A stretch of DNA of 64,000 nucleotides from the IMG/VR virus record IMGVR_UViG_3300010356_003652, positions 608-64,607 of that record; one strand, written 5' to 3'. Under the pieces are notes generated by a model. That model did not search any database, was not told the DNA's origin, and saw only the letters and a program-made list of their open reading frames with translations. Made by a program: the position numbers and the translations under genes. This document shows, piece by piece, positions 2,933-60,529 of this stretch (positions within the stretch are counted from its first letter, which is position 1; the number at the start of each line of letters is the position of its first letter). The DNA is from a virus (taxonomy: Duplodnaviria > Caudoviricetes).

Positions 2933-3382
2933 ATGCCATCAAAATCAAAATCCCAGCAAAGATTTTTTGGAATGGTACATGCTCTTCAAAAAGGAGAAAT
3001 GAAACCATCCGAAGCTTCGCCAGAAGTTAAGCAAGCTGCAAAGAGCATGAAGAAAAAGGATGCTACTGATTTTGCAGAGACCAAACATAAAGGCCTTCCT
3101 GAAAAGGTAAAGAAAAAGAAAAAGGTTGTATCTGAATCTCTTGATGAGTTTATCAATGAAGGAATGGTCTATGAGGATTCGCCTATAATGGATTTACCCC
3201 AATTTGAGGATGCTGTAATGGATAAAATGCAGGAATTAGGCCTAACCTGGGAGGAAGCAGATTTTGCTATGGGACAGATTGACCCGGAACAAATGGACGA
3301 GTGGAGAATGGAAGTTATAGATGGCGTTTCGACACTTGATCAAATTGCAGAAGAAACCTTAAAAAATTCTTTTAATCAATAA
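2933..3382 (+). CDS. hypothetical virion-associated protein with a DUF3008-like N-terminus (MPSKSKSQQRFFGMV)
   Basis: Recognisable small phage N-terminal motif; internal VSESLDEFINEG; late-type TAAATA just upstream. Confidence 0.6.
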   Translation: MPSKSKSQQRFFGMVHALQKGEMKPSEASPEVKQAAKSMKKKDATDFAETKHKGLPEKVKKKKKVVSESLDEFINEGMVYEDSPIMDLPQFEDAVMDKMQELGLTWEEADFAMGQIDPEQMDEWRMEVIDGVSTLDQIAEETLKNSFNQ

Positions 3383-3891
3383 TGATTGTCAGAGAATCAA
3401 TAGATTTCGAAAGAGGTCAGGATCCAAGAAGAGCTATGGGGATAGGACAGGCTGCAATCTGGAGAGAAAATCATGCAGATAAACCTTTTGCTCAAGTAAC
3501 ATTTTTTCTAAAAGATCCCATGGGAAATAAAAAGAGATATGTAGCTGCTCTATTCTATGGTCCGGATTATGAAGGATCGGAAGATTCTATTTGGTGGGGG
3601 AGAGGCAGATTAATATCTGCATGGCAAGGATCAGGGGGAATTTCTTCAGTCGGAAATATGCAGAATAAGCCCCCTCAGTTTTTTGAAGGCGATGATGAGG
3701 AAAGAATGATGTGGATTAATCCTGATGAATTTAGCAAGAGAGTAATCAATCCTCTTCTGGATAATAGAGTTAAAGAAGTTATAGATCATATTACAGAGGA
3801 GTGGTGGGAAGGAAACTTCGAAGATCAATTAAGAGAATGGTTTAGTACTGGAGTCATGACAGTTTTTAATGTTAAATACGAGGCATTATAA
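3382..3891 (+). CDS. hypothetical protein carrying the F-x-R-G-x-D-P-x4-G-I-G tag
   Basis: Starts MIVRESIDFERGQDPRRAMGIG; motif shared with ORFs at 33112, 34437, 35333 and more loosely 60104. Confidence 0.7.
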   Translation: MIVRESIDFERGQDPRRAMGIGQAAIWRENHADKPFAQVTFFLKDPMGNKKRYVAALFYGPDYEGSEDSIWWGRGRLISAWQGSGGISSVGNMQNKPPQFFEGDDEERMMWINPDEFSKRVINPLLDNRVKEVIDHITEEWWEGNFEDQLREWFSTGVMTVFNVKYEAL

Positions 3892-3968
3892 TCAAAAAAT
3901 ATCATGGGACTTAAAAACTTAAGTCCCATTGTTGTATAAAAAGATAAACAATATTAAAAAAAATTATT

Positions 3969-4763
3969 ATGGCAAAAACCATTGAATTTACAGCAAAGAA
4001 CGTAAAACAATTTACATCTTGGCTTAAAAGATTCTCTTCAATAGAAAATTCATTACTTCTTGAGCTAAATGAGAAAGAGGAATGCTTTGTTGCTAAATCA
4101 TATAATGAGCAAAAGAGTATTGTTAAATATTCGAAGATCTCCTTCTCGGAAGCAGGCTTCTCCCTAAATAAAAAAACCAATAATGATCAGCTTATTAAAA
4201 TAGGTATCTATAATATACCTAGAGTGATTAAATCTCTGGATCATTTTCAAACTGGAGAATTCTCTTTTGCAGTTCAATATGATGAACTGGACGACGGGAA
4301 AGAAAAGGATCTGGCGGGTATAGCTCTCCTGATAAAGAGTTCTTCCCTCAAAGTAAAAATCGATTGTTCGTCTCTTCGAGTCTTTAAGTATATCTCTGAT
4401 GATCTTTTCAAAACCAGAATTGCTAAAACTAATGCTGTCTCGATATTCGATTTAGCAAGTGCTACAATTGATAAAATAAATTCTCTTTGCGATTTGGATA
4501 AGGATTACGACTTTCTGGAATTCGTTATCAAGGATAATAATCTAATGATTCAGGGAAAATCCTTTGAATTAAAGATAGGAGAGGCCTCCGGAGATGCAGT
4601 CCTTTCAATTTATAAAGATCAGTTCCATAAGATCGATATGGAAAACTATGCTGTAGATTTTGGAGATGACAAGTTAATATTCAGATCCAAAGACAGCGAT
4701 ACAACAACTGTAACTTCCATGGTGGAAAAGGATAAAAAATATGAGAGCTCCCCAATGGGATAA
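3969..4763 (+). CDS. gp45: DNA polymerase sliding clamp (T4 gp45-like)
   Basis: LKRFSSIENSLLL and IGIYNIPRVIKSL resemble gp45 LKNFATINSGIML and VAIYDLNGFLGIL; size 264 aa fits a two-domain clamp. Confidence 0.65.
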   Translation: MAKTIEFTAKNVKQFTSWLKRFSSIENSLLLELNEKEECFVAKSYNEQKSIVKYSKISFSEAGFSLNKKTNNDQLIKIGIYNIPRVIKSLDHFQTGEFSFAVQYDELDDGKEKDLAGIALLIKSSSLKVKIDCSSLRVFKYISDDLFKTRIAKTNAVSIFDLASATIDKINSLCDLDKDYDFLEFVIKDNNLMIQGKSFELKIGEASGDAVLSIYKDQFHKIDMENYAVDFGDDKLIFRSKDSDTTTVTSMVEKDKKYESSPMG

Positions 4764-4802
4764 TTTTTTCATGATTTTATTTGTACTTTGCTTTTATAAA
4801 TG

Positions 4803-4827
4803 GGCAGACTTAAGGTCTGCCTTTTTT
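4803..4827 (+). terminator. intrinsic terminator
   Basis: GGCAGAC-TTAAG-GTCTGCC followed by T6. Confidence 0.85.
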
Positions 4828-4852
4828 AATATATAGAAAAAAGAATCATTCT

Positions 4853-6382: not shown

Positions 6383-6400
6383 GCACGTTAAAGATACTTA

Positions 6401-6427
6401 AGGCCTGTAACAATTACGGGCCTTTTT
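6401..6427 (+). terminator. intrinsic terminator
   Basis: AGGCCTGTAA-CAA-TTACGGGCCT followed by T run. Confidence 0.8.
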
Positions 6428-6483
6428 AGTATATGGAAGATCCATACATATTTTGAGTCCTTAACTAAAATAAATTCTGAACT

Positions 6484-7245
6484 TTGGCGAGAAAAAAGAA
6501 TTTAACCAGAGATGATCTCGAGGATTTTACAGAATACGAGATCAAAACATTAACCTCACAAAACGGCTCAAAAAATACAATAAAACTACAAGATATTAAA
6601 CTAGACATTAAATGCCTTAACGAAAGACAAAAAGAATTAAGAAGAGCCATCGAAGAAAAGGATGTTGTTATTTCTACAGGCCCAGCTGGAACAGGGCGTA
6701 CTTACATGAGCTTGCTAACCTCTCTTCATTTAATGAAGACACAACTGCAGTACAAGCGACTAGTCCTAGTCAAATCACTTCAAGTAATCAAAGGAGAAGA
6801 ACTCGGGTTTTTACCTGGTAACGTATGGGAAAAAATGGAACCGCATATGTTCTCATTTACCGGTAACCTAGATAAGATTTTTCACAGTCCATCTATAACT
6901 AAAGGACTTATAGAGAAGGGTGTGATAGAAGTCTTTCCAATAGCCTATATCAGAGGTGTTACTATGGACAATTGTATTGTAATTGTAGATGAGGCCCAAA
7001 ATTTATCTCTAGAGACCTTCCGGACTCTTATAACAAGAATAGGGAGAAATTGCAAGATGATATTTCTTGGCGATACAGAACAAGTAGATCTCAAAGACAA
7101 AAACATGTCCTGTTTATCCTGGGTATCCGAATTATTTAAGGATCAAGAATATGCAGGATCTGTAATTTTTGAAGATGAGGACAGCGTTCGAAACCCGATC
7201 ATTCCTAGCTTACTAAAATTATTAAGAAAGAAGAAGATTGAATAA
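6484..7245 (+). CDS. phoH: PhoH-family ATPase (Walker A Lys replaced by Arg)
   Basis: GPAGTGRT, ELGFLPGN, PIAYIRGVT, IVDEAQN, LITRIG, GDTEQVD, VRNPII; TTG start. Confidence 0.9.
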   Translation: MARKKNLTRDDLEDFTEYEIKTLTSQNGSKNTIKLQDIKLDIKCLNERQKELRRAIEEKDVVISTGPAGTGRTYMSLLTSLHLMKTQLQYKRLVLVKSLQVIKGEELGFLPGNVWEKMEPHMFSFTGNLDKIFHSPSITKGLIEKGVIEVFPIAYIRGVTMDNCIVIVDEAQNLSLETFRTLITRIGRNCKMIFLGDTEQVDLKDKNMSCLSWVSELFKDQEYAGSVIFEDEDSVRNPIIPSLLKLLRKKKIE

Positions 7246-7251
7246 ATAAAG

Positions 7252-7273: not shown

Positions 7274-7293
7274 ATTTTTTTATTAAGGAAAGA

Positions 7294-12837: not shown

Positions 12838-13110
12838 ATGAAAGGAATTAATAAAAATAAGATCAAGATTAAGAATCTTATAGGAATCGTTGACAATCCA
12901 ACCCACGAGGATCTTCTTTTTGAGATTGTCTCCTTTCTCGAAAAAGAAGGAAGACTTAGTGATGAATTCATCAAACAAGAAGTAAGCCTTAAAACCAGAT
13001 GCAGAATTGAAGAGGATCTAGAATTCGATCTTAAGAAATTGCAAGAATTGGGCTATATCGAGCATAAAGGCTGGACTAAATGGAAATTACTAAAACACCC
13101 ATGGCAATGA
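12838..13110 (+). CDS. hypothetical protein (possible winged helix)
   Basis: ORF track; ends LKKLQELGYIEHKG, wHTH-like. Confidence 0.55.
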   Translation: MKGINKNKIKIKNLIGIVDNPTHEDLLFEIVSFLEKEGRLSDEFIKQEVSLKTRCRIEEDLEFDLKKLQELGYIEHKGWTKWKLLKHPWQ

Positions 13111-13553
13111 AAAAAGAAATAAGATTAACTGGAAATTTTCTGCATTTTGATCAGAAAAATTTAAATGGCGTCACTTATACCAAAAAAGTTGCTGAAAGTA
13201 TTATCGAGCAATTTAAAGAGCAAAGAGGGGAGGATGGGGTTTTCTTCGGTGAATTAGGGCAGGATCGAGATGATGCAGGAATAAATATCAGCAATGTTTC
13301 TCACGATGTTATAGAACTTAAAATTAATGAGAATAATAAGACATTGGAAGGAACTATTCTTTTGCTAGAAACCTCGGCTGGAAAAAAAGCTTTAGAAATG
13401 TTAAAAGATCCAAACAATTATAGCATATCCTGTCGACCTAGGGGAATAGGAAAGGTTAATGATAGAGGGGAGATAGAAGAATATCAGATTATATCTTTTG
13501 ACCTAATACCAACTTCTTTGGATTCGTTTGGCCAAAGAGATCAGTTGAAATGA
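13101..13553 (+). CDS. T4 gp21-like prohead protease homologue, apparently lacking catalytic residues
   Basis: NLNGVTY, FGELGQ, NVSH, RPRGIG, ISFDLI align with gp21-family NRNxRxY, GELxH, VSH, SSRGxG, D; start at 13101 or 13107 more likely than 13080. Confidence 0.65.
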   Translation: MAMKKEIRLTGNFLHFDQKNLNGVTYTKKVAESIIEQFKEQRGEDGVFFGELGQDRDDAGINISNVSHDVIELKINENNKTLEGTILLLETSAGKKALEMLKDPNNYSISCRPRGIGKVNDRGEIEEYQIISFDLIPTSLDSFGQRDQLK

Positions 13554-31108: not shown

Positions 31109-32923
31109 ATGGCAGGATTCACATTAAGGAGCCTCGATAGAAAAAGCATGGGATGGGTTGGAAATATTCAGAGGAATATTCGATACCTAGCATCCCTTGG
31201 AATGAAATGGGAGGATAAAGTTATAAAGCAATCAAAATCTATTGGTATTGCTGAAGCTCAGCTAGATTCCATGTATGGCCTATATTATCAGGGCAACTAT
31301 ATGGGCACTGACTATGGTCAAAAGGAATTTATTGCTTTTTATGATAAGGAATACCCTACACGTAGGGACTTTTTGCGTAAATTTGCAATGAATGGCGAGG
31401 TCGAACATGTTCTTGAAGTAATTGCCGACGAATCTATAATCTATGATACTAATAACTATTTTGCATATCCGGATACTAAAAATCTTAAAAACGTTCTAAA
31501 ACAGGATAAAGCAAAGGAAATCGTTGATGATTTAAACGAAGCTTTCAAGAAAGTCTATTTTGCTTTTGGCTTTAATCAGGGACACGATGCTTGGCATTAT
31601 TACAAGAAATTTCTTATTGACGGATTCTTAGCCTTTGAAATAATCTATGATGGCGAAGGAGAAGAAGATGCTAAAAATATTATAGCTCTCAAAGAAGTAG
31701 ATCCTGTTTCACTAGAACCCGAAGTTCGTATTGGTGTTGATGGTAATGAATATAGAGTATGGATCCAATATAGAGGCGATACTATGAAACAAAGGGAGCT
31801 TCTGGATTCAAACCTTATTTACATATCTTGGGCAAGAGGAAATTTCATTTCAAGATTATCATATGTTGAAAGACTAGTTCGCTCCTTCAATATGCTAAGA
31901 ACCCTTGAAAATTCACGTATCATTTGGAATGTATGGAACTCTCAGATGAGGGTAAAAATTCTAGTTCCAATTGGATCTCAGTCTGAAGCTAAAGCAAGAA
32001 CAAGACTCTCTGAATTAAGAGGTATGTATAAAGAAGAACTTAATATTGATGATCAGAGTGGAGAGGTTACTTATAATGGATCCCCCCAGTTTAACTTTGC
32101 TAAGACCTTTATTATTCCAACTAAATCTGGGGAGACCACAGAAATTGGAGGATTCCAGCCAGAAGGATATGATCTATCAAATGTAGAAGCTCTTAAATAT
32201 TTCTGGCTTAGATTTATTATAGAGACTAAAGTTCCTCAGAGTAGATTCTCTCAGCAATTAACTGGAGAGGGAGGGGATAATCCTTGGGGAGCTGGAGTCG
32301 AATCTGCAAGTAGAGATGAAATTAGATTTTCTTATTTTATCAATAGAGTTCGCTCGATGTTCCAGGAGGTATTACTTAAACCTCTTTGGATTCAGTTTAT
32401 TCTTAAACATCCTGAATTTGAAAAGGATAAATCTCTTAAATCCGCTATAGGTCTTAATTTTAATGAGGAGAACCTATTTAAACTTATGAAATTAAGGGAG
32501 ATTGCGGATAAGGGTGCTACCCTAGTTAGTAATTTGATGGGTATCAACGAGCCAACAATTAATCCTGATGGAACTCCAGGTGAAACTCCATATTTCGATC
32601 CAAAATTCTTAGTTGGAAAATATATGAGTTTCACTGATGAAGATATGAAGCTAAATGCTAAATTCAAGAAGGAAAGACAAGATGAAATTAAGAGATTAGC
32701 TCAAGCCTATGCTCGATTAGCAGCTTCTAAAGGAACTGCTGCCGGTGGAGAAGCAGGAGGCGGAGAGTTTGGAGCAGGTGGTGGAGAATTCGGCGGCGGC
32801 GCTGGTGGATTTGATCTTGGAGGAGGCGGTGGTCTCGATCTAGGAGGCGGAGCAGAATCTGGAGGAGAAGAATTAGGAGGTGGCGGTGAAGAAGCCGGCG
32901 GAGGTGAAGAATTAGGATTATAA
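31109..32923 (+). CDS. gp20: portal protein (T4 gp20-like) with a Gly/Glu-rich tail
   Basis: EVEHVLEVIADESI, IDGFLAF, SYVERLVRSFNMLRTLENSRIIW, LKYF...KVPQSRF, RDEIRFSYFI. Confidence 0.88.
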   Translation: MAGFTLRSLDRKSMGWVGNIQRNIRYLASLGMKWEDKVIKQSKSIGIAEAQLDSMYGLYYQGNYMGTDYGQKEFIAFYDKEYPTRRDFLRKFAMNGEVEHVLEVIADESIIYDTNNYFAYPDTKNLKNVLKQDKAKEIVDDLNEAFKKVYFAFGFNQGHDAWHYYKKFLIDGFLAFEIIYDGEGEEDAKNIIALKEVDPVSLEPEVRIGVDGNEYRVWIQYRGDTMKQRELLDSNLIYISWARGNFISRLSYVERLVRSFNMLRTLENSRIIWNVWNSQMRVKILVPIGSQSEAKARTRLSELRGMYKEELNIDDQSGEVTYNGSPQFNFAKTFIIPTKSGETTEIGGFQPEGYDLSNVEALKYFWLRFIIETKVPQSRFSQQLTGEGGDNPWGAGVESASRDEIRFSYFINRVRSMFQEVLLKPLWIQFILKHPEFEKDKSLKSAIGLNFNEENLFKLMKLREIADKGATLVSNLMGINEPTINPDGTPGETPYFDPKFLVGKYMSFTDEDMKLNAKFKKERQDEIKRLAQAYARLAASKGTAAGGEAGGGEFGAGGGEFGGGAGGFDLGGGGGLDLGGGAESGGEELGGGGEEAGGGEELGL

Positions 32924-33111: not shown

Positions 33112-34437
33112 ATGCGAGCTCTTCTTGTTGAGGAAGTAATTAATTTCAAGAGAGGCGAGAACCCGCTTAGCTCAATGGGGCTTGGTGGGTTTTCCTTTGA
33201 AACACTTCAGCCTGGAGCTATTATTCAGTCTAAAAGATATTTTGGAGTTACAGAAAAAACCGGAAATATAACAGGATACCATTCAGGAAAAATTAAGATA
33301 GGAAATGGAAATTATTTATTAATTACAGAAGCTCGAAAAACTAATAATCCCGAAACAAAGAATCTCTATTTTCATCGGTATATTGATTTAGAAACTGCTA
33401 AAAAGGAAAAGGAAAAATTAAAAGAAGGAGGAACGAGAGCTCTTTCCTGGTGGGGAATTCCAAGAGGATTCTTTTCCTCCATGACCAAATCAAAATTCAA
33501 TTATAGATTTGATATCATAGAACCAGGATTTGGTATTGAAGAATCGATAAATTTCCAAAGGGGGCTAGATCCAAAAAAAGTTCTGGGCTTGGGAAGGCCA
33601 TTCGGATTTACTAAAGATCTTTTAGATTTATCCCATAACGATGGAAAAAATATTCTATTTGTACGACCGGATTTTGTAGAAAAATTAAAAGCAGAAGGGA
33701 TTTATCAATATGATACAAAAAGACTCTATTTTGGAAATGATCTCATAGGAAGATGGGGATACAGAAAAAAAGATTATCAAAATCATGATGGGACTTTCAA
33801 AGGGCCATATTCCTGCAATTTCAGATTATTTAATAGAGGAGGGGACCTGTATATGCTGCAAGGATCTTCCGGCGATTATGGATTTGGGGGAATGCAAAGA
33901 ACGCAAAGCGAAACTATAGGACCAACTTTTAGAAAATCCCTATATGAGCAAGTATATAATTATCTAATGAATAAGTGGGTCGAAACTACGAATGAAAGCC
34001 TCAATTTCCAGAGAGGGCTGGATCCTAAAGCTTCTATAGGTATAGGAGGATATTCCTTTGACACATTAAGAAATGGTACTATAATAAAATGTATTAAACC
34101 TTTTGGAACATCAAAAGGAGGAGTTATACGAGCATATCAAGGATCTGCTAAAAGAATTCCCCTAGAAACATATTTAGTAATATTTAATATAAGGAAATTA
34201 GATTCATATTATATCTCATTTGGATATATAAATGTTGGGGGAGTTGGATGGTATCACAAAGGGGAGGAAAGAGCTAGAAAAGATCTAGAATATTTTGATA
34301 GGGCAAAAGGAATTCAAAAATTATATCTCGAAGGAGATCCATATATAGAATCCTCTAGAAAATATTCAGGGGGATTAATAGCTAAGATAGGGCGAGAAAA
34401 ATTTAATAATCTCTTTAAAATAATAGAAACACCATAA
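33112..34437 (+). CDS. three-unit protein; each unit begins with the F-x-R-G-x-(D/N)-P tag
   Basis: INFKRGENPLSSMGLG, ESINFQRGLDPKKVLGLG, NESLNFQRGLDPKASIGIG. Confidence 0.75.
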   Translation: MRALLVEEVINFKRGENPLSSMGLGGFSFETLQPGAIIQSKRYFGVTEKTGNITGYHSGKIKIGNGNYLLITEARKTNNPETKNLYFHRYIDLETAKKEKEKLKEGGTRALSWWGIPRGFFSSMTKSKFNYRFDIIEPGFGIEESINFQRGLDPKKVLGLGRPFGFTKDLLDLSHNDGKNILFVRPDFVEKLKAEGIYQYDTKRLYFGNDLIGRWGYRKKDYQNHDGTFKGPYSCNFRLFNRGGDLYMLQGSSGDYGFGGMQRTQSETIGPTFRKSLYEQVYNYLMNKWVETTNESLNFQRGLDPKASIGIGGYSFDTLRNGTIIKCIKPFGTSKGGVIRAYQGSAKRIPLETYLVIFNIRKLDSYYISFGYINVGGVGWYHKGEERARKDLEYFDRAKGIQKLYLEGDPYIESSRKYSGGLIAKIGREKFNNLFKIIETP

Positions 34438-34883
34438 TGAGAGCTCGATTAGTAGAGGCAAATTTCGAAAGAGGAGATATGGATCCTAAAACCCGAATAG
34501 GCATAGGATTGGGGCCTGCTCAGCATATAAAGAAATTTGAAGAGATTATGGATGAGTTTAATTTTGAATATGAAAGAGAGGATCCTACAGAATCATATGA
34601 GACATATACGTGGGTATTAAATGATGCGGATTTCGGCCCTCTGGTAGATAAAACCATTTTTCTTCACCCAGTTCCAAATAGAGAAGGAAAGATAGGGTGG
34701 TTTTTTAGACCGCTAAGTCACAAATATTATGATGACCCATATCCTATAATAGAATTCATAGTTCAATCAGTTTTATATGATATGAGTAATGAGCTGGATT
34801 CTATTAAAAAGAGTATTCAATATTACGAGGAAAGAATAGTAGAGATAAAAGGTGATGCAAAAAGGTTAAAAATTAACATTTAA
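34437..34883 (+). CDS. hypothetical tag-bearing protein
   Basis: MRARLVEANFERGDMDPKTRIGIG. Confidence 0.7.
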   Translation: MRARLVEANFERGDMDPKTRIGIGLGPAQHIKKFEEIMDEFNFEYEREDPTESYETYTWVLNDADFGPLVDKTIFLHPVPNREGKIGWFFRPLSHKYYDDPYPIIEFIVQSVLYDMSNELDSIKKSIQYYEERIVEIKGDAKRLKINI

Positions 34884-34935: not shown

Positions 34936-35006
34936 AAGTTCACGTTCTTTGGAACTAGCTGCGAGAGACGGCTGTTTGGACGCGGGTTCGAATCCCGCCA
35001 CCTCCA
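34936..35006 (+). ncRNA. ssrA: tmRNA acceptor piece (permuted two-piece ssrA); 5' boundary approximate
   Basis: GGAC-GCGGG-TTCGAAT-CCCGC-CACCTCC-A: tmRNA-type T-arm and acceptor 3' strand; upstream bases pair with the coding piece. Confidence 0.85.
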
Positions 35007-35147
35007 CATCGCCAGGTTTCCTGCTTCCCTTTAAAAAGCAGGTGGTGGAAAGTTGATTATTTTTAATCAGCCCCAATGTGAGTACTCTACCTTGGGTAGG
35101 GATCCTCTCAAGGCCTTTCTGGTTGGGCCCGTTAATCAACCAGATAC

Positions 35148-35265
35148 GGGGGTGACTTTGGCTTTGACAGCAGTGCGGAAGTAGTAAGCGAACGAACTTG
35201 AGAGCGTTATAAACGGCGCATTTAAAAGTGAACTAAGGGTTGCTGCCTAAGAGGCACCTTCCTTT
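35148..35265 (+). ncRNA. ssrA: tmRNA coding piece (5' acceptor strand plus tag reading frame); 3' boundary approximate
   Basis: GGGGGTG pairs with CACCTCC including G3:U70; GACAGC helix 2; ATAAAC resume context then GGC GCA TTT AAA AGT GAA CTA AGG GTT GCT GCC TAA at 35215-35250. Confidence 0.85.
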
Positions 35266-35332: not shown

Positions 35333-35785
35333 ATGGATTTCAGAAGGGGGCAAGATCCCGTTAAGAGCTTGGGCTTAGGTTATGGAAATAAGATGAACAC
35401 CAAAGCCTGGAAAATTCTTCAATTTATAGGTAGTAAGGGGGAAGAAGGAGCAGGCCTTACAGATATTCAAAGATTTCTTTGGACAGAGCTTCAAGAGAGA
35501 TCATTAAAGGATTTTGAAATGTCATCAAATGATAAATGGGGATATAATTACCCTTCTCTGTATAATAAAACAAGAGCTACCCGCGGATATTATAATACAA
35601 ACCTTTATGGAACTAGGTATAAGCCCGGATTATTACGTAAATATTGCAGGAAAAATGAGAGGGGAAAATGGGTTCTCGAAAGGATGCCCGAGCCTGGTGA
35701 AAATATATATGAAAACGAGGGATTTAAACTTGTCCCGGAATCTCTGAATGAAATGTTAATTAAAAAGAATAGATATATAAAATAA
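35333..35785 (+). CDS. hypothetical tag-bearing protein
   Basis: MDFRRGQDPVKSLGLG; the ORF-track start at 35240 lies inside the tmRNA and terminator; GATATATA at 35308. Confidence 0.7.
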   Translation: MDFRRGQDPVKSLGLGYGNKMNTKAWKILQFIGSKGEEGAGLTDIQRFLWTELQERSLKDFEMSSNDKWGYNYPSLYNKTRATRGYYNTNLYGTRYKPGLLRKYCRKNERGKWVLERMPEPGENIYENEGFKLVPESLNEMLIKKNRYIK

Positions 35786-35798
35786 AATACTGTAGATT

Positions 35799-36287
35799 AT
35801 GAAAGCTGGATATTTTAACATACATGAATACCTTCAAAAACTTCATGAAAACGTTTCTGATGGAAATCTTCCTTCAGGACAGCAAGACGGAATTCTTATT
35901 CCGGATGAAAACAAGAAATCATTCTCTTGGTTAAAGAAGGAATTTGACAAAAGCAGAGTAGAGGTTAAGGTTGAAATTAATATGGGCGGAAGTAAATTTT
36001 CGCCGGGATATGAGCTTCAGACAAATCTTAAATCAGTAAAAGATTTCAAACCGGGTATGTTTGGTGATGTGAAAACTTCTGACACTCCAGGCGCTAAAAA
36101 AGAAGAAAAAGACACTGCTCAGACTCAGGCTGAAGTAGAAAAAAAGAAACCAGAATTAGAAAAGACAGCTGAAAAATCTACAGGTGGCGAAAAACAGCCA
36201 AAACCAGCTATCTCAGCTAAGGTCAAAACAGCAGAAGAAGAGGAGAAAAAACCCAAGAAAGAGGAAAAAGAAGATGATAAAACATAA
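35799..36287 (+). CDS. hypothetical protein with a Lys/Glu-rich C-terminus
   Basis: ORF after GATATATA at 35772. Confidence 0.65.
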   Translation: MKAGYFNIHEYLQKLHENVSDGNLPSGQQDGILIPDENKKSFSWLKKEFDKSRVEVKVEINMGGSKFSPGYELQTNLKSVKDFKPGMFGDVKTSDTPGAKKEEKDTAQTQAEVEKKKPELEKTAEKSTGGEKQPKPAISAKVKTAEEEEKKPKKEEKEDDKT

Positions 36288-36608: not shown

Positions 36609-37331
36609 ATGCTTAATAAGTTAATTGTATTGGAAGGTACAGATGGATCCGGTAAATCCACTCAGGTAGAGCTCGTTAAAAAATACCTTCAAGATCACTC
36701 CTTAAAATTCAAATTTTTTCATTTTCCTATGTATGGACATAATGAGTTTAGCGAAGTTATCGCTAAATTTTTACGTGGAGAATTCGGAGGAGTAGATGAT
36801 GTGGATCCCTATTTTGTAGCAAATATCTACGCAATGGATCGATTTATGTTTCTTCCTGAATTGCAAGCAGCTATAGAGGAAAATGATGTAGTTCTTCTAG
36901 ATAGATATGTATTTTCAAATTTAGCATATCAGGGAGCAAAATTAGAATTGGGAGAGAGCGAACTTATTAAGAATTGGATTTATGAATTTGAATTTAAATT
37001 CCTTAAACTTCCCTATCCTGATTTAAGCCTATTTTTTGATGTACCTATAGAAGTTGTCAAAGAGAGACTAGAGAACAAAAGAGAAGGAAATGATAGAGAT
37101 TACCTCCAAGGAAAACAGGATATACATGAAGCAGATCTTGGATTTCAGAGCAGGGTCAGGGATAATTATTTAAGCTTGGTTGGTTCTGTAAATTATCAGA
37201 TTGTCCAATGTGCAACTCAGGTAGGAGAATTCCAGAATATTCAATGGTTTGTTTTTCCTCCTGAAGAACTATTTAAATTCTATAAGAAATCATTGGATTA
37301 TGTAATATTCAATATTCCTTATAATGGCTAG
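36609..37331 (+). CDS. tmk: thymidylate kinase
   Basis: LEGTDGSGKSTQ, LDRYVFSNLAYQG, PYPDLSLFFDV. Confidence 0.92.
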   Translation: MLNKLIVLEGTDGSGKSTQVELVKKYLQDHSLKFKFFHFPMYGHNEFSEVIAKFLRGEFGGVDDVDPYFVANIYAMDRFMFLPELQAAIEENDVVLLDRYVFSNLAYQGAKLELGESELIKNWIYEFEFKFLKLPYPDLSLFFDVPIEVVKERLENKREGNDRDYLQGKQDIHEADLGFQSRVRDNYLSLVGSVNYQIVQCATQVGEFQNIQWFVFPPEELFKFYKKSLDYVIFNIPYNG

Positions 37332-38047: not shown

Positions 38048-38671
38048 ATGCAAAAAAAGCAAGAAAGTATCCAGAATATAGCACTGGATTTTTTGGAAAA
38101 AAGAGACAATAATACATTCAGAACACTTATAAACAGGCTAAAACCCGGATTAATTTCTTATACTTACAAATATGTTAATGATATGGATCTTTGCAAAGAG
38201 ATCATATCCAAGACTTTTATTTCAGTATGGGAAAAATTAGATCAGTACGACAAAACCTATAACTTCTCAACCTGGGTTTATGCTATTGCCAAGAACGAGT
38301 GTCTTGGCCAGCTAAGAGTTCAGAAGAGAAATGTTTCTCATGAGAAGCTAACAGAAAATCACTCGAGGGTCTTAAAAATGTATAGCCCCGTGGTTCATAT
38401 GGAAACGGAAGTTATAGGGCCTAGCGGAGAAGAGCTGATTGATTGTCTTTATCAAAGAACGGTAGATGAGATTCAGAATTTAGACGAACCTTATAAAACT
38501 GTTATGATTGAAAGAGAGATTAATCAAAAAAGATTGCAAGATATAGCTGCCGATCTTAATTGGAATCTCTCTACTGTAAAAACAAGATTAAGGAAAGCAA
38601 GAATGGATGTAGCAAAAATAATTGCTGAAAAACATCCGGAATTATTGGAATCCTACTATGAAGAAGAATAA
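38048..38671 (+). CDS. ECF-type sigma-70 factor (regions 2 and 4)
   Basis: EIISKTFISVWEKLDQYDKTYNFSTWVYAIAKNECL; LQDIAADLNWNLSTVKTRLRKAR. Confidence 0.88.
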   Translation: MQKKQESIQNIALDFLEKRDNNTFRTLINRLKPGLISYTYKYVNDMDLCKEIISKTFISVWEKLDQYDKTYNFSTWVYAIAKNECLGQLRVQKRNVSHEKLTENHSRVLKMYSPVVHMETEVIGPSGEELIDCLYQRTVDEIQNLDEPYKTVMIEREINQKRLQDIAADLNWNLSTVKTRLRKARMDVAKIIAEKHPELLESYYEEE

Positions 38672-39205: not shown

Positions 39206-40966
39206 TTAGGAGGTCTTTAGAGCGGAATTCTCATCTCTTAATGCCTGATTTTCAGCTTCCAATTGGGAAATCTGAGTTTGAAGATCCGTTATTTTGAATA
39301 GAGATGTATATTGAGATAGTACCTGCTGATAATTAGAATATGAGAAATAGAAGCCCTCATAGAAAGTGTAGCTAGTTCCGTCCGGATTTTTAATAATAAT
39401 GGAATAGCTATTATTATTCTGTTTTAGAAGCTTAGCTGTTTGTGCTTCCATTATCTTAAATTCTAATTCTCCTAATGTAACATTCATATTAGATGAATAT
39501 GTAGGCGGAATTTCAATTTTGGTATCGTCATCAAGGATAAACAGAAGTGCATAATTATAAGCTCCAGAGAGGTCAACATTCATGGGTTCGTTATTAGCAT
39601 TCTCATCGATCCTATCAAAAGAGAATTTATAATTTCCATCTCCTCTTTTTAGGAATAACGGACCCGTTCCCTGGGGAAGAACCTCATTAGCCATATTAAG
39701 AAGAACCCTTGTAGTATCATAAAATACTTTAACAAATTTAGATTTTCTATTATCTGTAGTCTGGACAATAGTGGAAGCTTCACCCTCAACTCTATTAAAA
39801 ACTTTATATGGAATATAGTTGTCTACATTTAATCTAGTAAAGTATCTTCCATATTTTTGCGGGTCCGTGCTCGCGAGAGATGCCTTTCTAATGATCTGAG
39901 TTCCATCCATCCTATTTGTTAATCTACAAATATAATCAATTGTATATGATGAAGCTATATCTGCATTCTTAATAACCGGTCTGAAATAATTTGGTAGCGA
40001 GAAGTTATTCTCTTGAGTAAAGATATATTTCTGAGTAAGTAATGAATTTCCTGGGATATGCTCATATACATAGATCTCGTGCATGACGACCCATTTTGCA
40101 GCACCAGCCCCATAGATATCAGAGAATTCTTCAAAATTGTCATTTGGGTTATTAGAGGTATAGAGCCTAATTCTTCCGCTCTCTATATCCCCCATATATT
40201 CTCCAATAATTATATCATTCCATGTAGCATAGAACTCTATAAAATCCCCTCCCGTACTCTGGGCAATGAAGGCATTAAAACTGTCCGCCTGCGATGTCAC
40301 AGGAAGCTGTAGCGAGATTCTTTCCTGAATTATATAATTATCCCCGTCGATCTCCGGAATCGTGCTATACGTAAAGTAAACATCAGATAGAGGAGCTATC
40401 GATAAAGCCTGACCCAAATTAGAGATATTATCACCGCCTAACTCTTGTACTGAAGGAACTTTAAATTCTACATACTTATCGTAAAACTTATTGCCTAAAT
40501 ATAAGGCATTAAGAGAAAATTTAATGACACTATTTCCAGTAACCTGATTTATCCAGGTGAAATTAGTTAGATCTAACATGTTTCCAGCTGTGTCCATTGC
40601 TCCTATCTGAAGCAGGAATCCTGGAATATCATCAAAATTATATCCAGAAACAATATGAACTTTTACCGTGTCAAGTGCATAATTTTCGGAAAAAGAGGTA
40701 GATGAATCAAAAAATGGCCAATAAGAGGATTCGTCCGTAGATGTATACCAGGAAGTCCTCTTAACATCGGTTGGTTCAGAATTTAATTTCAGATCATTAT
40801 TCAGAGTTCCTATACTATTCTGATTGAAATATTGTTTTCGTCCCAAAATGGTATTAGCAACAACATGCTGAATCCCAGCAGTTTCCTCACCAGATTTATT
40901 AAATTCATACTCTAAGAGTAGAAAGTCGTTTAATTGTACATATTTGGAAATATTATTCATATTCAT
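39206..40966 (-). CDS. hypothetical structural protein (586 aa) of the tail module
   Basis: Long beta-rich ORF with a C-terminal coiled coil; co-oriented with the fibre genes. Confidence 0.65.
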   Translation of the reverse strand: MNMNNISKYVQLNDFLLLEYEFNKSGEETAGIQHVVANTILGRKQYFNQNSIGTLNNDLKLNSEPTDVKRTSWYTSTDESSYWPFFDSSTSFSENYALDTVKVHIVSGYNFDDIPGFLLQIGAMDTAGNMLDLTNFTWINQVTGNSVIKFSLNALYLGNKFYDKYVEFKVPSVQELGGDNISNLGQALSIAPLSDVYFTYSTIPEIDGDNYIIQERISLQLPVTSQADSFNAFIAQSTGGDFIEFYATWNDIIIGEYMGDIESGRIRLYTSNNPNDNFEEFSDIYGAGAAKWVVMHEIYVYEHIPGNSLLTQKYIFTQENNFSLPNYFRPVIKNADIASSYTIDYICRLTNRMDGTQIIRKASLASTDPQKYGRYFTRLNVDNYIPYKVFNRVEGEASTIVQTTDNRKSKFVKVFYDTTRVLLNMANEVLPQGTGPLFLKRGDGNYKFSFDRIDENANNEPMNVDLSGAYNYALLFILDDDTKIEIPPTYSSNMNVTLGELEFKIMEAQTAKLLKQNNNSYSIIIKNPDGTSYTFYEGFYFSYSNYQQVLSQYTSLFKITDLQTQISQLEAENQALRDENSALKTS

Positions 40967-41589
40967 TATTTATTTTTTGAATCCCAATATTTTTTCATGG
41001 ATTCGCTTCTTTTTCTTCTGGTTCCCTCGCTTTGTTTTCTACCTATTAAGCTTTCTGAAATTCTTTTTCTTGAATCCGGAGTATGACTCTTTCCATCCCA
41101 AGAAGAAATCCCTGTTCTACTCAGACTTATTTTTTGTTTTGTCTCTTCCCGATGTTTTTTTCCTTTCATTGGAGATTCAACACCATTTAAGGAGAGGCTT
41201 ATTTTCTTTTTTGTCTCCTCTGATCTTTTCTTTCCCGTCCATGGACCTTCATGATTGTGTTTTCCTATGTTGTTTTTTCTAATTTTTTCCTTTGTTTTTT
41301 CTGAATGTCCACCATTGCTTGTTCCCCCAAACGGACTTATATTGTATCCATTCGGATTTAATGTTCTATAGTTTTCTATTAAAATTCTTTCTCCATTCCT
41401 TGCATCCTCTATATTGTGATAGTATTTTATAATTTTCTTCGAGAAATTATTAGCTCCGTATTTTTTTAATGCTTTCCTAATTAATGATCCGCTCCCCAGA
41501 TAATTATCATTCTCTAGCAAACTTTTATGACTTCCGACATATTGCTTGCCATTTATTTTATTAGTAGTTAAATATGTATAAAAAAACAT
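40966..41589 (-). CDS. GIY-YIG homing endonuclease with NUMOD3-type repeats
   Basis: YTYLTTNKINGKQYVGS; HSEKTKEKI, KKRSEETKKKIS, KKHREETKQKIS repeats. Confidence 0.88.
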   Translation of the reverse strand: MFFYTYLTTNKINGKQYVGSHKSLLENDNYLGSGSLIRKALKKYGANNFSKKIIKYYHNIEDARNGERILIENYRTLNPNGYNISPFGGTSNGGHSEKTKEKIRKNNIGKHNHEGPWTGKKRSEETKKKISLSLNGVESPMKGKKHREETKQKISLSRTGISSWDGKSHTPDSRKRISESLIGRKQSEGTRRKRSESMKKYWDSKNK

Positions 41590-42862: not shown

Positions 42863-44770
42863 TTATATTTTATTTTTTATTGTTTCTAATTCTTTCATTA
42901 AAAATTCAATTTTATCTTCTAACTTATTGATGTGTTTCTGTTGCTCCTGAATAGCTCCAGATAAATATGGAATTAATTCTACATATTTAATAGTCTTATA
43001 AATTGTACTAGGATCTTCACCCAAAATTTCGCTTTCCGTAATTAATTCGGGAAACAAATTCTCAAATTCCTGCGCAATATATCCTACATGCTTCTCCCCA
43101 TTTGATTTTCTTTCATAAGAAACACCTCTTAATGTTAAAATCTTATCTAATGAAGGCTGAAGATCCTGGATATTCTTCTTAAGTCTTATATCTGATATCA
43201 AGGATGAATACGCTATTATGTTTCCATCTGCGTGGAATGTAGATACGTCAAATCGGAATTGTTCAGATCCGGATATTACAATTCCTATTCCATTACGGGG
43301 AGATGTAGTATAGAAAAATCCTGCTGCAGACCCTGCTCCAGCGAATTGGAGTGCTAAAGATGAAGGACTTCCTTTAGCAATATAAGTTCTTCCTAAAATA
43401 TCTCCAGATTGGTTGGTAGAAAGATAAACTCCTCCGGCTCCTCCTGCAGTAAAGCTTCCCTTATAATCTCCCGGTATTAAAACTATATCTCCGCCTTTAG
43501 AAGAAGGTTGCGTACTATTAACTCCACCAGCAAATATTCTTATACTGCCTCCCACTGGTCCAGGTCCGGAGGCGGAAGGATTAGGCGTTCCGCTTCTTCC
43601 AGCTGATATATCTATAATTCCCCCATCACCGGGGGACTGTTCTCCATCCCCGCCATTTCCTGCTGATAATATAATGCCTCCCGCGTTTCCCCCATAAAAC
43701 CCTGCTGTGTCTCCCCCGTCTCCTGTTAATATCTCTATATTACCCGAATCATATTGAAGGCCTGCTGATACATCTCCCGTATAAATAGTAATTTTTTTAG
43801 CATTACCAGTTAATCTAGCAGGGAGATAGATCGAATGATCAACAGCAGATCCAAGAAAAACATCTTTTGCGATGCTAACATCCCCATTAATCTGAAGAAT
43901 TGAACCATCAAATGTGAAATTAGAATTTGCGTAAATATTTGTATCTGAGTTTCCTGCTGTTATAACCCTATATTCAGCATAATTTGACATTATCATTCCG
44001 GAAGGAGCAGAGCCTTGAGCTATCCTTCCAGATGTTCGATCCCAATAAAGAATATCTGTTTCCGTGGATTTCGTTGCTACGCTAGGACAATAAATATCAT
44101 TAAAGTCTAGATATAGACTAGCATCTCTTATAGATCCATCATCAAAATTACCAAAATGCCATTCATTTTTATCTCCCCTTCTTGCTAAAGCTATGGCATC
44201 ATTTCCTGTTGTGTTATTTCCGATGGTCCATATTTCAAATGGATACCATCCATTAAGATCTGCCAAAACATCATTTCCAATATAGCTCACTCTACCAAAA
44301 TAAGTAGCCATGTTATCATATATGGAAGAAGGATATTGAGTGTAATCGCCGACAGTATTTGTATAGACCGTATCAATAAGGAATTTATCTGTCTCAAAAG
44401 CATTCGAATACCTCTGAAATCCAGGTGATAGAGTTTGCGGAGGGCCCTCTGCAAAGAATCCTGATGTATTAAGGAATATTCCCGTGTCCTTATAGAGATT
44501 TGCCTCATTTAGGTCAATCTGGAAAACCCTAGCATTTTTATCAATGAAAATATCGCCTGTTTGATAAACCCTATTGGGATATCCGGGGATAAGCACATCA
44601 TTAGAAAATAATTCTTTGTTCGCAATAATTTTCCCTTTGATAGTAACTGTATCTGAGTTGCCATCATAAGCGGAAAAGAATACTGCCAATCCAGTTAAAC
44701 CAGCTGAACCATCAGTTCCTGCTGTTCCATATCCAGGAAGTCCAGGTCCGTATATAAATTTTCGAGGCAT
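42863..44770 (-). CDS. tail fibre/spike with C-terminal peptidase S74 intramolecular chaperone
   Basis: Gly-rich repeats; SDIRLKKNI...GYIAQE...PELI...YVELIPYLSGAIQEQQ. Confidence 0.85.
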   Translation of the reverse strand: MPRKFIYGPGLPGYGTAGTDGSAGLTGLAVFFSAYDGNSDTVTIKGKIIANKELFSNDVLIPGYPNRVYQTGDIFIDKNARVFQIDLNEANLYKDTGIFLNTSGFFAEGPPQTLSPGFQRYSNAFETDKFLIDTVYTNTVGDYTQYPSSIYDNMATYFGRVSYIGNDVLADLNGWYPFEIWTIGNNTTGNDAIALARRGDKNEWHFGNFDDGSIRDASLYLDFNDIYCPSVATKSTETDILYWDRTSGRIAQGSAPSGMIMSNYAEYRVITAGNSDTNIYANSNFTFDGSILQINGDVSIAKDVFLGSAVDHSIYLPARLTGNAKKITIYTGDVSAGLQYDSGNIEILTGDGGDTAGFYGGNAGGIILSAGNGGDGEQSPGDGGIIDISAGRSGTPNPSASGPGPVGGSIRIFAGGVNSTQPSSKGGDIVLIPGDYKGSFTAGGAGGVYLSTNQSGDILGRTYIAKGSPSSLALQFAGAGSAAGFFYTTSPRNGIGIVISGSEQFRFDVSTFHADGNIIAYSSLISDIRLKKNIQDLQPSLDKILTLRGVSYERKSNGEKHVGYIAQEFENLFPELITESEILGEDPSTIYKTIKYVELIPYLSGAIQEQQKHINKLEDKIEFLMKELETIKNKI

Positions 44771-56556: not shown

Positions 56557-56664
56557 ATCTTATAGTTTTATTTTATATATCTCCGCTATTTAAAAAGGTC
56601 CTTTTTCAGGCGAAAAAAGATTTCATATATAGGATATAATGTCGAACTATTAAACTAAAATAAA

Positions 56665-57906: not shown

Positions 57907-57922
57907 TGCTCCTTTCTTTTTT
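57895..57922 (+). terminator. intrinsic terminator
   Basis: AAGGAGC-TTAAT-GCTCCTT followed by T-rich tract. Confidence 0.75.
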
Positions 57923-57948
57923 TAGATAAATAGAATAAAAGAGGATTT

Positions 57949-59358
57949 ATGCGTCCAAAGGAATATTCTGTTAGAGAAGTTTTTAATAATACATCAATAG
58001 GACTTAAATTCGAGTTCTTTTCTTCTAAAAAGACTGAATTTATTGCTGAAGACCTGTCAAAGGCTTTAGGAAAAAATGTAGTTATCACTGGTGATTTCAA
58101 AAGTATTCCAACTTGGTCATCCTCTGTTCTATTAAAAGAATACAACGGAAAAAGACCTAGATACCAATTAAAAGTAGCTCAGCAGGATTATCCATCGATA
58201 TTAACTGGATTACATTCAGTTCTTGAATGGATAAAAGAAAATGCTGCTCTTGATTACAGCACAAAATTATCTATAGATTTATCCTTTAATCATAGGCACT
58301 TACAAACTCTTTCATCCATATCTCATATGGATATAGGAAAAATGATTCTCAAGATTGATGAGAATTTCCTCTATAATAAATTTCCCATGATGTCTAAATC
58401 TCCCTTTGCGTTATCTGTAAAGAGAATAATTCCATTTGATGGGTTTATCAATATTTCTACTTCTCTATCAAATTTAGGAAATAATTTCCAGCTTCCCGTA
58501 TCTGAACACTATGCGATAGACTTTACAGAACAACCAATGGGAATTCTCCGCTTTAACTATATTGGTGGAAAATATACCGAAAAACTTCATGAGGTCAATG
58601 AGGCTATAAAATATTATATTATTTCAACATATCAGGTTCTAAATACATCAGGATTTAGTGTTGATATGAAACATGAATTGGATAAGATCGTTGAAAATTA
58701 TTCGAAGATAAGAAGATGCTATAATGAGCCTGATTTCTTTTTGAAAGAGTTTAAAGATATTAAGGTCTCAGTAGATCTTAAAATAGGAGAGCAAGTAATA
58801 AAAACATATTGGGACAAGATGAGATCTCCCCTCTTAAAACTTATGTTAGAAACGGATATCAAAAAAGGATACTTTAACTGGGATTCAGATTTAGGGCGAT
58901 TTGAACTAAATAATTCTGAAATATCAGGAGCAAAAATAAAAGGCCTTAATCTTATTGATTGTAAAGTAACGGGGCTTATAGAAAACTGCCATTTATGGAG
59001 AAGTAATTTAGAAAATTCCAGAATAATTAATTCGGTTATTGTAGCAGGAAATAAGATCCAATCCTCTCTAGTAGAAGGATGCCGAGCAGATAGGGGGAAC
59101 ACTATAGAAAGATCATATATAATAAACAGAGGAGAAATTATTAATTGTAAGGTTAATGAATCTATTATAAAAAATGCAGGCCTAGGGGCTCAAGCTAAAA
59201 TTGATGAAGAATGCACTGTTATAGAAGATCGTCAAAAGCTCTCCCCCGAACCGGCAAAAGGAATAGCTTCCGAAGAGATCAGAGATTACAAATGGATAAA
59301 GAGCATGAGCAAGTCTGAAGATAAAGGATTTGGGAATGAATATAAAATTAAATACTAA
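57949..59358 (+). CDS. degenerate amidoligase-like protein with a C-terminal beta-helix
   Basis: IGLKFEFF, YSTKLSIDLSF and ILRFNYIGG echo amidoligase GxEFEF, SCGLHIN and IEFR..GG; C-terminal repeats such as IENCHL and IINSVI. Confidence 0.45.
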   Translation: MRPKEYSVREVFNNTSIGLKFEFFSSKKTEFIAEDLSKALGKNVVITGDFKSIPTWSSSVLLKEYNGKRPRYQLKVAQQDYPSILTGLHSVLEWIKENAALDYSTKLSIDLSFNHRHLQTLSSISHMDIGKMILKIDENFLYNKFPMMSKSPFALSVKRIIPFDGFINISTSLSNLGNNFQLPVSEHYAIDFTEQPMGILRFNYIGGKYTEKLHEVNEAIKYYIISTYQVLNTSGFSVDMKHELDKIVENYSKIRRCYNEPDFFLKEFKDIKVSVDLKIGEQVIKTYWDKMRSPLLKLMLETDIKKGYFNWDSDLGRFELNNSEISGAKIKGLNLIDCKVTGLIENCHLWRSNLENSRIINSVIVAGNKIQSSLVEGCRADRGNTIERSYIINRGEIINCKVNESIIKNAGLGAQAKIDEECTVIEDRQKLSPEPAKGIASEEIRDYKWIKSMSKSEDKGFGNEYKIKY

Positions 59359-59360
59359 AG

Positions 59361-60095
59361 ATGACTAAAGCCGAATTAGTTGAAGAAGTAAAGGGGGAAT
59401 TAACTGCTTCCTGCGCTCTACCATATTCGCCTCCAACAAAAGAGATCGAAAGGATAATCGATAAGGAGATGAGGTGGCTTTATAGAGAGTATCGAGAATT
59501 GCTACAGGATAAAATATACGTTATTAATAGAAGATATTTCCAAACGCCTGAGTTTAAAAACTCCAGGACTATGCAAATGAATAATTGCACAGAAGGTGTT
59601 AAGAAAGTTGTTGAAATGACTGGCGGTAGTAGAGTCTTTGGTATTAATGATCCAGATATGAGTTTTGATAGACTTATGGCATCGGATCTATATTTAACCC
59701 CCCTTTCATCAGATCAGATTACTTATAGAACTATTCAGTGGAGTTTCTGGGATTTAGCTAGAGGATTTAATCTGGTTGATATAAATCATGATTTTAATCC
59801 TAATACTCATAGACTTATTATAACTGGTCGAACACCAAATGAGAGTCTAATGGTATTAGCTATGGACCATATTCCGGAAGAGGATGCTTATGAAGATACA
59901 GTGGTTATAGAATGGATGATTGCAAAATCGAAAATATCTTTGGCAAGAATTTTAGGAGCATTTAATTATAATCTTTTAGGAAACGTTACAATTAATTTTG
60001 AACAGTGGAGATCAGAGGGGCAGGAAGAATTAGAGAGATTAAGAGAGAAAATAAAAGGCGATGATACTGCCGACTGGTTCCTATTTTTCCCATAA
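59361..60095 (+). CDS. gp13: neck protein (T4 gp13-like)
   Basis: EWMIAKSKISLARILGAFNYNLLGNVTINFEQWRSEGQEELERLREKI resembles the gp13 C-terminus (..LPGGVTIDG..EARxExE.LREEL). Confidence 0.7.
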   Translation: MTKAELVEEVKGELTASCALPYSPPTKEIERIIDKEMRWLYREYRELLQDKIYVINRRYFQTPEFKNSRTMQMNNCTEGVKKVVEMTGGSRVFGINDPDMSFDRLMASDLYLTPLSSDQITYRTIQWSFWDLARGFNLVDINHDFNPNTHRLIITGRTPNESLMVLAMDHIPEEDAYEDTVVIEWMIAKSKISLARILGAFNYNLLGNVTINFEQWRSEGQEELERLREKIKGDDTADWFLFFP

Positions 60096-60103
60096 TAGAT
60101 AAT

Positions 60104-60529
60104 ATGAAGTTAGTAAGAGAATATATTGAACCAGTTAATTTTTATAGCAAGATGGATTTTGAAAAAACAGGAGATCCTCTAAAGGATATGCAGTTGGGTC
60201 AGAAAGCTAGAATATCTCAGTGGCTAGATTCCAAGGGAATCGAGAACTATAAAATTCTGGAGGACCTAACTATCGATGTTTTTGATGACGTAAATTTAGT
60301 TGGGGAGGAGTTGGAAGAATTACCAGAATTCATCAAATTTAATAAGATATATGGCGGATTTTATGCAGGAGGGAATAATTGGAAAAATCTTGAAGGATTT
60401 CCTAAAGAAGTTCTGGGAGATTTTCAGTTAAGATCCCCTTCAGCCCCAGCTTTTTATAATATTGTTAAGAGATTTAAAGAAGAAAAAATAAGAAAATTAA
60501 TAAAAATTCATGGGAAAGTTTACAACTAA
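60104..60529 (+). CDS. tag-bearing protein with an LRR-like/beta-solenoid repeat
   Basis: MKLVREY..MDFEKTGDPLKDMQLG; KFNKIYGGFYAGGNNWKNLEGFPKEVLGDF. Confidence 0.6.
   Translation: MKLVREYIEPVNFYSKMDFEKTGDPLKDMQLGQKARISQWLDSKGIENYKILEDLTIDVFDDVNLVGEELEELPEFIKFNKIYGGFYAGGNNWKNLEGFPKEVLGDFQLRSPSAPAFYNIVKRFKEEKIRKLIKIHGKVYN

Follow-up and report, generated by a model that had tools for sequence, protein, structure and literature searches.

A portable peptide tag on small protein modules of huge phages with T4-type heads, a candidate mark of head cargo

The internal proteins of T-even phages are a diverse set of proteins that have only a capsid targeting sequence (CTS) in common (PMC3012670). T4 gp21 recognises L/I-x-E and cuts after the Glu residue (PMC9026906), and the proteases of phages phiKZ and SPN3US likewise cut after Glu (PMC5694885). 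Here we describe a short peptide with the core FERGxDP, in the following called the tag, which recurs on small protein modules encoded in the window, i.e. a stretch of 64,000 nucleotides (nt) of viral DNA (Duplodnaviria; Caudoviricetes) that corresponds to positions 608 to 64,607 of IMG/VR virus record IMGVR_UViG_3300010356_003652. An earlier note on this DNA, made from the sequence alone, had proposed that the tag sorts a polymorphic set of effectors into the phage head. The contig that contains the window has a length of 64.6 kb and is 16% complete according to CheckV, pointing to a genome of ~400 kb, and the database portals nearest to the portal protein of the window (~41%) are those of Lak megaphages and of a 462 kb uncultured phage.

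Our analysis shows that the tag is a linear, portable peptide by which small independent protein modules are marked, and probably also delimited, in ~400 kb phages with T4-type heads. The modules occur as stand-alone proteins or as arrays within one polypeptide chain, and a Glu-containing element precedes the tag in nearly all cases in which another module lies upstream of it.

Nature and distribution of the tag

The consensus of the tag together with the element that precedes it is [VLI]-x-E-[SA]-[VIL]-[ND]-F-E-R-G-x-D-P-K-x-[AS]-[ML]-G-[IL]-G, in which the F, the G, the P and the final G of the tag are invariant and the R and the D nearly so. At the invariant residues codon positions 1 and 2 are 97% identical across copies, position 3, in contrast, only 45%, and every synonymous codon is used; selection on the tag acts at the protein level.

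The seven sites listed in the earlier note are all present in the window, on the + strand and in real open reading frames (ORFs; Table 1). A strict regular expression retrieves five of them and a loose one all seven, and neither pattern has a match in 30 shuffled windows. A tag-specific hidden Markov model (HMM), a check that the note had called for, was built from 89 related copies; it recovers six of the seven copies with 14.7-43.1 bits and scores the copy at nt 60158 with 5.7 bits, which is the noise level for the motif alone. This seventh copy is supported by homology. The similarity between the 141-aa protein that carries it and a canonically tagged protein begins at the tag (32% over 115 aa, E 2e-13), and 31 orthologues retain MK[LI]VRE together with a decaying FER[TS]GDP..D[ML].[LI]G, one distant member even having the full canonical tag. 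As the homology to a canonically tagged protein starts with the tag and the orthologues grade into the canonical form, the copy at nt 60158 is, judged by these alignments, a genuine diverged member of the tag family.

The tag is always located on the N-terminal side of its module. In the AlphaFold2 (AF2) model of the 169-aa tagged protein, which has a predicted local distance difference test (pLDDT) score of 76.7, residues 1-12 score below 50 and the tag (residues 9-22) is of low confidence, the downstream domain being well folded. The model of the 441-aa protein, which contains three modules, has a predicted template modelling (pTM) score of 0.36 with folded domains that are separated by segments with pLDDT values below 50 (residues 1-25, 148-168 and 291-312), and these segments are the three tags (residues 12-25, 148-161 and 299-312). 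As the low-confidence segments coincide with the tags, the tag is predicted to be a flexible linear peptide in the linkers between independent domains and not the core of a domain.

The domains downstream of the tag had been described as mostly dissimilar. This holds for the other tagged proteins of the window, whose mutual similarity is limited to the 16-22 aa of the tag, whereas the 441-aa protein is built from three paralogous modules (modules 1 and 3 share 32% identity over 145 aa, E 2e-14). When module borders were set by the tag HMM, BLAST grouped 204 unique complete modules from related loci into 114 clusters, the largest having 22 members, and the median length of the domains is 110 aa. 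A Pfam domain (ankyrin) was detected in one of the 114 cluster representatives and a PHROG also in one. The downstream domains have no runs resembling transmembrane segments and their isoelectric points are mixed. Foldseek searches of PDB and BFVD with the models of the 169-aa and 441-aa proteins gave no match at E<=0.001, a search of the ESM Atlas with the 169-aa protein yielded nothing usable, and VIA-align returned only SH3-like and KA1/START-like resemblances with Z values of 5-6, i.e. under the meaningful range of the tool.

The back-translated tag pattern is found at 68 loci in IMG/VR, of which ~59 are true; they cluster strongly, and a single 46 kb contig has 14 exact matches. The HMM counts 297 copies with at least 10 bits in related loci, up to 10 of them in a single ORF. 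A search of 1.84 billion representative proteins with a 30-column profile gave at least 1,856 matches at E<=0.001, 480 at <=1e-10 and 87 at <=1e-30, with a maximum of 12 tags in a protein of 1,511 aa, and none of these 1,856 tag-matching proteins is named in any source. Individual virus records contain 6, 22, 38, 6 and 19 tags, these records being fragments that are 16-34% complete, and extrapolation gives roughly ~35-120 modules per genome, arranged in several clusters.

Outside of these viruses the tag was not detected. A 51-bit consensus pattern has 17 loci in IMG/VR versus none in 596 Gb of bacterial and archaeal genomes, and a looser pattern is absent from the nearest huge phages in GenBank, LR756500.1 and Lak-A1. 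Searches of Pfam and PHROGs with five tagged proteins of the window identified neither a tag nor a domain family, a tblastn search of 50,697 phage records with the 148-aa tagged protein resulted in a single match that is unrelated to the tag (E 0.5), and nothing was found in the searchable literature for the motif string or for phage polyproteins of this kind. Taken together, neither Pfam nor PHROGs nor the searchable literature describes the tag, which is exclusive to one virus lineage.

Three close homologues of window proteins (P0001, P0163 and P0206), one of which is located on a 161 kb contig, are part of NCBI metagenome-assembled genomes (MAGs) labelled Candidatus Paceibacterota bacterium and Candidatus Nanoarchaeia archaeon. 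None of 185,579 species-representative genomes contains the strict tag pattern, and the homologues therefore probably come from contigs of huge phages that were mis-binned into MAGs of the Candidate Phyla Radiation (CPR) or of DPANN archaea, or they give a hint at the host.

The Glu junction in fused and split modules

The residues in front of internal tags follow a strict rule. Counted from the F of the tag, Glu is found at position -4 in 67 of 69 unique internal tags from related loci, S or A at -3 in 57 and V, L, I, M or F at -6 in 62. Nearly the same pattern is seen in 466 internal tags from 150 independent database proteins (Glu at -4 in 456, a residue of the latter group at -6 in 87%, S or A at -3 in 85%), and the Glu motif that had been noticed upstream of the window tags thus turns out to be real and general. 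The median spacing of the internal tags in the 150 proteins is 117 aa, and 132 of these proteins have a tag right at their start. In the N-terminal tags of the related loci, the sequence in front of the tag is short or missing: 24 short forms begin with M-[ND]-FERG and lack the [VLI]-x-E element, a further N-terminal variant reads MRAxF[IV]RGxDP, and the long forms have only a short piece of the MKAKFVxE type ahead of the tag. Since the Glu element is needed only where something precedes the tag, it behaves like a processing site.

At the level of sequence, the junction context [VLI]-x-E-[SA] matches the motif of T4 gp21, the hydrophobic-x-Glu cleavage context being shared with the T4 system (PMC9026906), and its Glu also fits the specificity of the phiKZ and SPN3US proteases (PMC5694885). 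The product of such a cut would start with (S)-[VIL]-[ND]-FERG, almost like the proteins that are translated from the short genes. The internal junctions of the 441-aa protein, with the slash denoting the putative cut, are GIEE/SIN and TTNE/SLN. Moreover, modules that are separate in one genome are joined in another. The two-module protein P0168 has, at residues 152-290, an internal module that corresponds to the stand-alone 148-aa protein of the window (58% identity over 140 aa), and in P0003 (253 aa), which originates from another metagenome, a DUF3008 domain is fused to a homologue of the 169-aa protein via the sequence ...DIME/SIDFQRG, i.e. via an I-M-E/S junction. Fused and split forms of the modules are thus interchangeable. 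Several distinct domains per ORF, folded in the AF2 model, are separated by a conserved junction, as in protease-processed viral polyproteins.

Proposed head loading and competing explanations

We favour, with a probability of roughly 0.45, a function in which the tagged modules are loaded into the head and released by the prohead protease, analogous to the internal proteins of T4. The modules would be made as stand-alone proteins or in polyproteins that comprise as many as 12 of them, and a T4-type prohead protease of the S77 family would cut after the Glu of [VLI]-x-E/[SA], so that all products would begin with (S)-[VIL]-[ND]-FERGxDPKx[AS][ML]G[IL]G. The peptide retained on the product may then dock the module on the prohead interior, i.e. 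on the scaffold, the inner face of the capsid or the portal. Small proteins from a large repertoire with rapid exchange would finally be enclosed in the head and would probably be delivered together with the DNA, just like the T4 internal proteins. Cleavage, the identity of the protease, docking, encapsidation and injection are all steps that we infer.

A connection to the head is suggested by gene order. Of 18 portal loci, 12 have a tagged gene on the same strand whose start lies 0.2-1.3 kb downstream of the portal gene, and module 1 of the 441-aa protein is kept beside the portal in relatives. The interval between the portal gene and a conserved gene for a 162-aa protein comprises 0.8-6.8 kb and contains 0-9 tags. 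In G002, a tag-bearing relative with 38 tags, an S77/S80 prohead protease domain (53 bits) opens an 843-aa ORF and a gene for a gp23-type capsid protein (135 bits) comes next; this protease shares the contig with the 38 tags, and the specificity assumed for it is that of its family. The C-terminal, scaffold-like extension of the protease contains 0.95 [VLIMF]xE[SA] motifs per 100 aa versus 0.28 in the downstream domains.

The system resembles that of T4 in several respects. As in IPI, IPII, IPIII and Alt, a short conserved N-terminal peptide is found on otherwise unrelated small proteins; a gp20-type portal is encoded in the window, and an S77 protease and a gp23 capsid protein in the relative G002 only; and the repertoire varies between related phages (PMC3012670). 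The tag, however, has no sequence similarity to the T4 CTS, nor do the modules to the internal proteins, the charge of the domains is mixed whereas T4 internal proteins are basic, and three to four internal proteins in T4 compare with dozens to ~100 modules per genome here, concatenated up to 12. The variable cassette interval between the conserved portal and 162-aa genes is also reminiscent of the hyperplastic regions of T4-type phages, with the difference that all cassettes here share one peptide tag and are able to fuse in frame. Similarities also exist to the inner-body and ejection proteins of phiKZ, 201phi2-1 and SPN3US with their gp175/gp245-type proteases (PMC5694885): these are likewise huge phages, they have many head-internal proteins that are cut after Glu at A/S/G-x-E, and paralogues with conserved N-termini occur there as well (SPN3US gp53/gp54; PMC5694885). 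Nevertheless, propeptides of the phiKZ type are long (>100 aa) and removed, FERGxDP and polyprotein arrays are missing, and the head lineage differs from the gp20/gp23 T4-type lineage of the phages described here.

A retained peptide is also known from encapsulins, whose targeting peptides (GSLGIGSLR, GGDLGIRK; PMC10960027) are short, stay on unrelated cargo via a flexible linker and bind the P-domain at the inside of an HK97-fold shell. Tag positions 9-13, [AS][ML]G[IL]G, recall the small-hydrophobic-Gly-[IL]-Gly core of GSLGIGSLR (PMC10960027), but this five-residue likeness could be due to chance and serves as a lead only, and the peptides of Family 1 encapsulins are C-terminal whereas the tag is N-terminal. 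One may speculate that the tag is a docking peptide of this kind, binding either the HK97-fold capsid from the inside or the scaffold, and that it loads about a hundred polyprotein-derived effectors that are cut by the prohead protease, which would constitute a programmable arsenal of high capacity for protein injection, evolving through the exchange of cassettes at the tag; this more specific version we regard as rather unlikely.

Several observations weigh against head loading. The 14-18 conserved residues are located C-terminally of the putative cut and would stay on the product, whereas the T4 CTS lies N-terminally of the cut and is removed. The parallel that the earlier note drew to the T4 targeting sequence, which is removed after Glu, thus does not extend to the position of the tag: as the conserved peptide follows the cut, the tag cannot be a removable CTS of the T4 type and, if it targets the head, could do so only as a docking peptide that stays on the product. 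The extrapolated ~35-120 modules per genome far exceed any known head-internal repertoire, and the tag arrays of G002 are mostly located at 23-32, 99-109 and 118-128 kb and are thus widely separated from the genes for the protease and the capsid protein (61-65 kb). In the window, which represents 16% of a genome, no capsid gene and no active prohead protease were found. Of the downstream domains 51% are acidic, as opposed to the basic, DNA-binding internal proteins of T4. Finally, proteins that are exposed to a Glu-specific protease may be expected to avoid its sites, and [LIV]xE occurs in the downstream domains at 1.02x expectation versus 1.19x in untagged ORFs (Asp control 1.22x versus 1.14x); the direction is that of protease exposure, but the depletion is weak, confounded and not conclusive.

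The main rival explanation assumes that the hub to which the tag docks the modules is not the capsid but a host protein or a phage machine. Many variable domains would in this way reach a single target in the infected cell. The modules would then be host-takeover or anti-defence factors that are made after infection instead of being packaged, with cleavage by some protease in the cytoplasm or no cleavage at all. We consider this possible, if doubtful. It would account for the tag arrays, which form several long clusters of small orphan genes that share a strand and lie at a distance from the head genes, similar to the early hyperplastic regions of T4-type phages, as well as for the very high copy number of the tag, the mixed charge of the domains, the retention of the tag on the product and the fixed position of one subfamily beside a gene for a DUF2201 metallopeptidase with a VWA-like domain. 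However, the junction fits prohead proteases, which act inside proheads, the cassette adjacent to the portal is conserved, and no other protease is consistently linked to the tags, the DUF2201 gene being tied to that single subfamily.

Improbable, in our view, is a scheme in which the polyproteins stay uncleaved and the motif is a flexible hinge in proteins built like beads on a string, e.g. decorations of the virion surface or of fibres, with single-module genes being fragments of arrays. Although the AF2 models show such a string of beads with the motif as linker, and the regular spacing of ~117 aa is in line with it, a hinge explains neither the 132 of 150 proteins that start with the motif nor its N-terminal retention in stand-alone genes nor the fact that [VLI]-x-E is found at 98% of the internal copies and yet is absent from the short N-terminal forms; moreover, it would not need nine near-invariant residues. 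Even less credible is that the motif represents the folded core of one domain family, i.e. of diverged paralogues, or a repeat at the DNA level, serving as recombination or regulatory site. The three paralogous modules of the 441-aa protein and a first clustering, in which 44 of 108 modules formed one cluster, seemed to support a common fold. This 44-member cluster, obtained with borders set by regular expressions, was rejected as an artefact of degenerate tags that had remained undetected inside the supposed cargo, and with HMM borders it gives way to the 114 clusters. The tags, moreover, are low-pLDDT segments, modules 1 and 2 of the 441-aa protein weakly resemble different predicted folds, and a DNA-level repeat is at odds with synonymous positions that are free to vary. 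Both versions are thus largely refuted, and the view that a portable tag is attached to unrelated domains, as put forward in the earlier note, is borne out.

If the modules are indeed head cargo, no known set of phage-packaged proteins would come near them in size and modularity, and the tag together with the Glu junction rule would allow the cargo to be read straight from metagenomes. In a huge-phage lineage otherwise made up of dark matter, ~10% of the coding capacity would obtain a function, and the tag would be a compact, natural means of bringing foreign proteins into large capsids. Should head loading prove wrong, the strongly selected 20-residue motif on at least 1,856 protein clusters is still a well-defined new short linear motif system.

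Genes around the portal and the tagged cassettes

Table 1. Tagged genes and other features of the window (positions in nt of the window; tag ranges start at the F of the motif; slash, putative cut)
Feature	Position	Strand	Details
DUF3008 protein	2933-3382	+	PF11450, 34.6 bits; directly upstream of the 169-aa tagged gene
169-aa tagged protein	3382-3891	+	MIVRE/SID-FERGQDPRRAMGIG; tag 3406-3447; HMM 43.1 bits
157-aa S77-like ORF	13080-13553	+	Peptidase_S77, 13.5 bits, under Pfam cut-off; between UvsX-like recombinase and DnaB-like helicase
T4-type portal protein (gp20)	31109-32923	+	PF07230, 180.7 bits; upstream border of the variable tagged-gene cassette
441-aa three-module protein	33112-34437	+	tags 33145-33186, 33553-33594, 34006-34047; HMM 25.5, 37.0, 36.2 bits
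148-aa tagged protein	34437-34883	+	MRARLVE/AN-FERGDMDPKTRIGIG; tag 34464-34508, one-residue insertion; HMM 14.7 bits
Circularly permuted (two-piece) transfer-messenger RNA (tmRNA)	34943-35250	+	Rfam RF04321, 62.5 bits (gathering score 47); ARAGORN call
150-aa tagged protein, short form	35333-35785	+	MD-FRRGQDPVKSLGLG, no upstream Glu element; tag 35339-35380; HMM 30.5 bits
Conserved 162-aa protein	35799-36287	+	Lys/Glu-rich C-terminal half; downstream cassette border; kept after tagged genes in portal loci
Thymidylate kinase	36609-37331		downstream of cassette
Sigma-factor-like protein	38048-38671		downstream of cassette
Homing endonuclease	40966-41589	-	downstream of cassette
Tail-fibre protein	42863-44770	-	downstream of cassette
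141-aa protein, degenerate tag	60104-60529	+	MKLVRE/YIE...MD-FEKTGDPLKDMQLG; tag 60158-60199; HMM 5.7 bits
574-aa DUF2201 metallopeptidase and VWA-like protein	60510-62234	+	Gln/Gly-rich insert; overlaps 3' end of the 141-aa tagged gene

The C-terminus of the portal protein (nt 32730-32923, aa ~540-604) forms a low-complexity tail of ~60 residues that is rich in Gly and Glu (GGEAGGGEFGAGGGEFGGG...GGEELGL). Matches to the portals of relatives in tblastn searches stop near query residue 530-547, and the tail would face the interior of the head. At the other border of the cassette, the 162-aa protein may be related to the scaffold or to the head core; the thymidylate kinase gene is the next gene after it. 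Since the cassette is followed by the genes for the kinase, the sigma-like protein, the homing endonuclease and the tail fibre, the T4 gene order portal-protease-scaffold-capsid is not kept in the window.

The permuted tmRNA gene is located inside the variable cassette, between the genes for the 148-aa and 150-aa tagged proteins, and the tag peptide that ARAGORN assigns to it is GAFKSELRVAA. The ORF of the 150-aa protein, which has orthologues in L070, L042 and L069, starts with the ATG at nt 35333, immediately 3' of the tmRNA gene.

The 157-aa S77-like ORF was considered as processing protease and ruled out by its lost catalytic His, its score below the cut-off and its location in the replication module. 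In this protein the His of GELxHP is replaced (GELG-QD, with Gln at the His position), and the G004 orthologue, which occupies the same gene position, has Tyr instead of the catalytic His and has lost the Ser, too. Judged by these substitutions, the ORF probably encodes a conserved, inactive protein with a protease fold that belongs to the replication module. The sequence LNE/AEMGG in G002 was considered as a counterpart of the T4 gp23 maturation site and not used, as phmmer gave no alignment for this short piece and the site is 20 residues off from T4 residue 66 in ungapped register.

The DUF2201 metallopeptidase/VWA protein was also rejected as a general partner of the tagged proteins, its linkage being confined to the 141-aa subfamily. 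In this subfamily the gene order, i.e. a gene for a 244-aa protein followed by the 141-aa family and DUF2201, is kept in five of five related loci. The PHROGs label of the DUF2201 family is 'HNH endonuclease', which looks like a mis-annotation.

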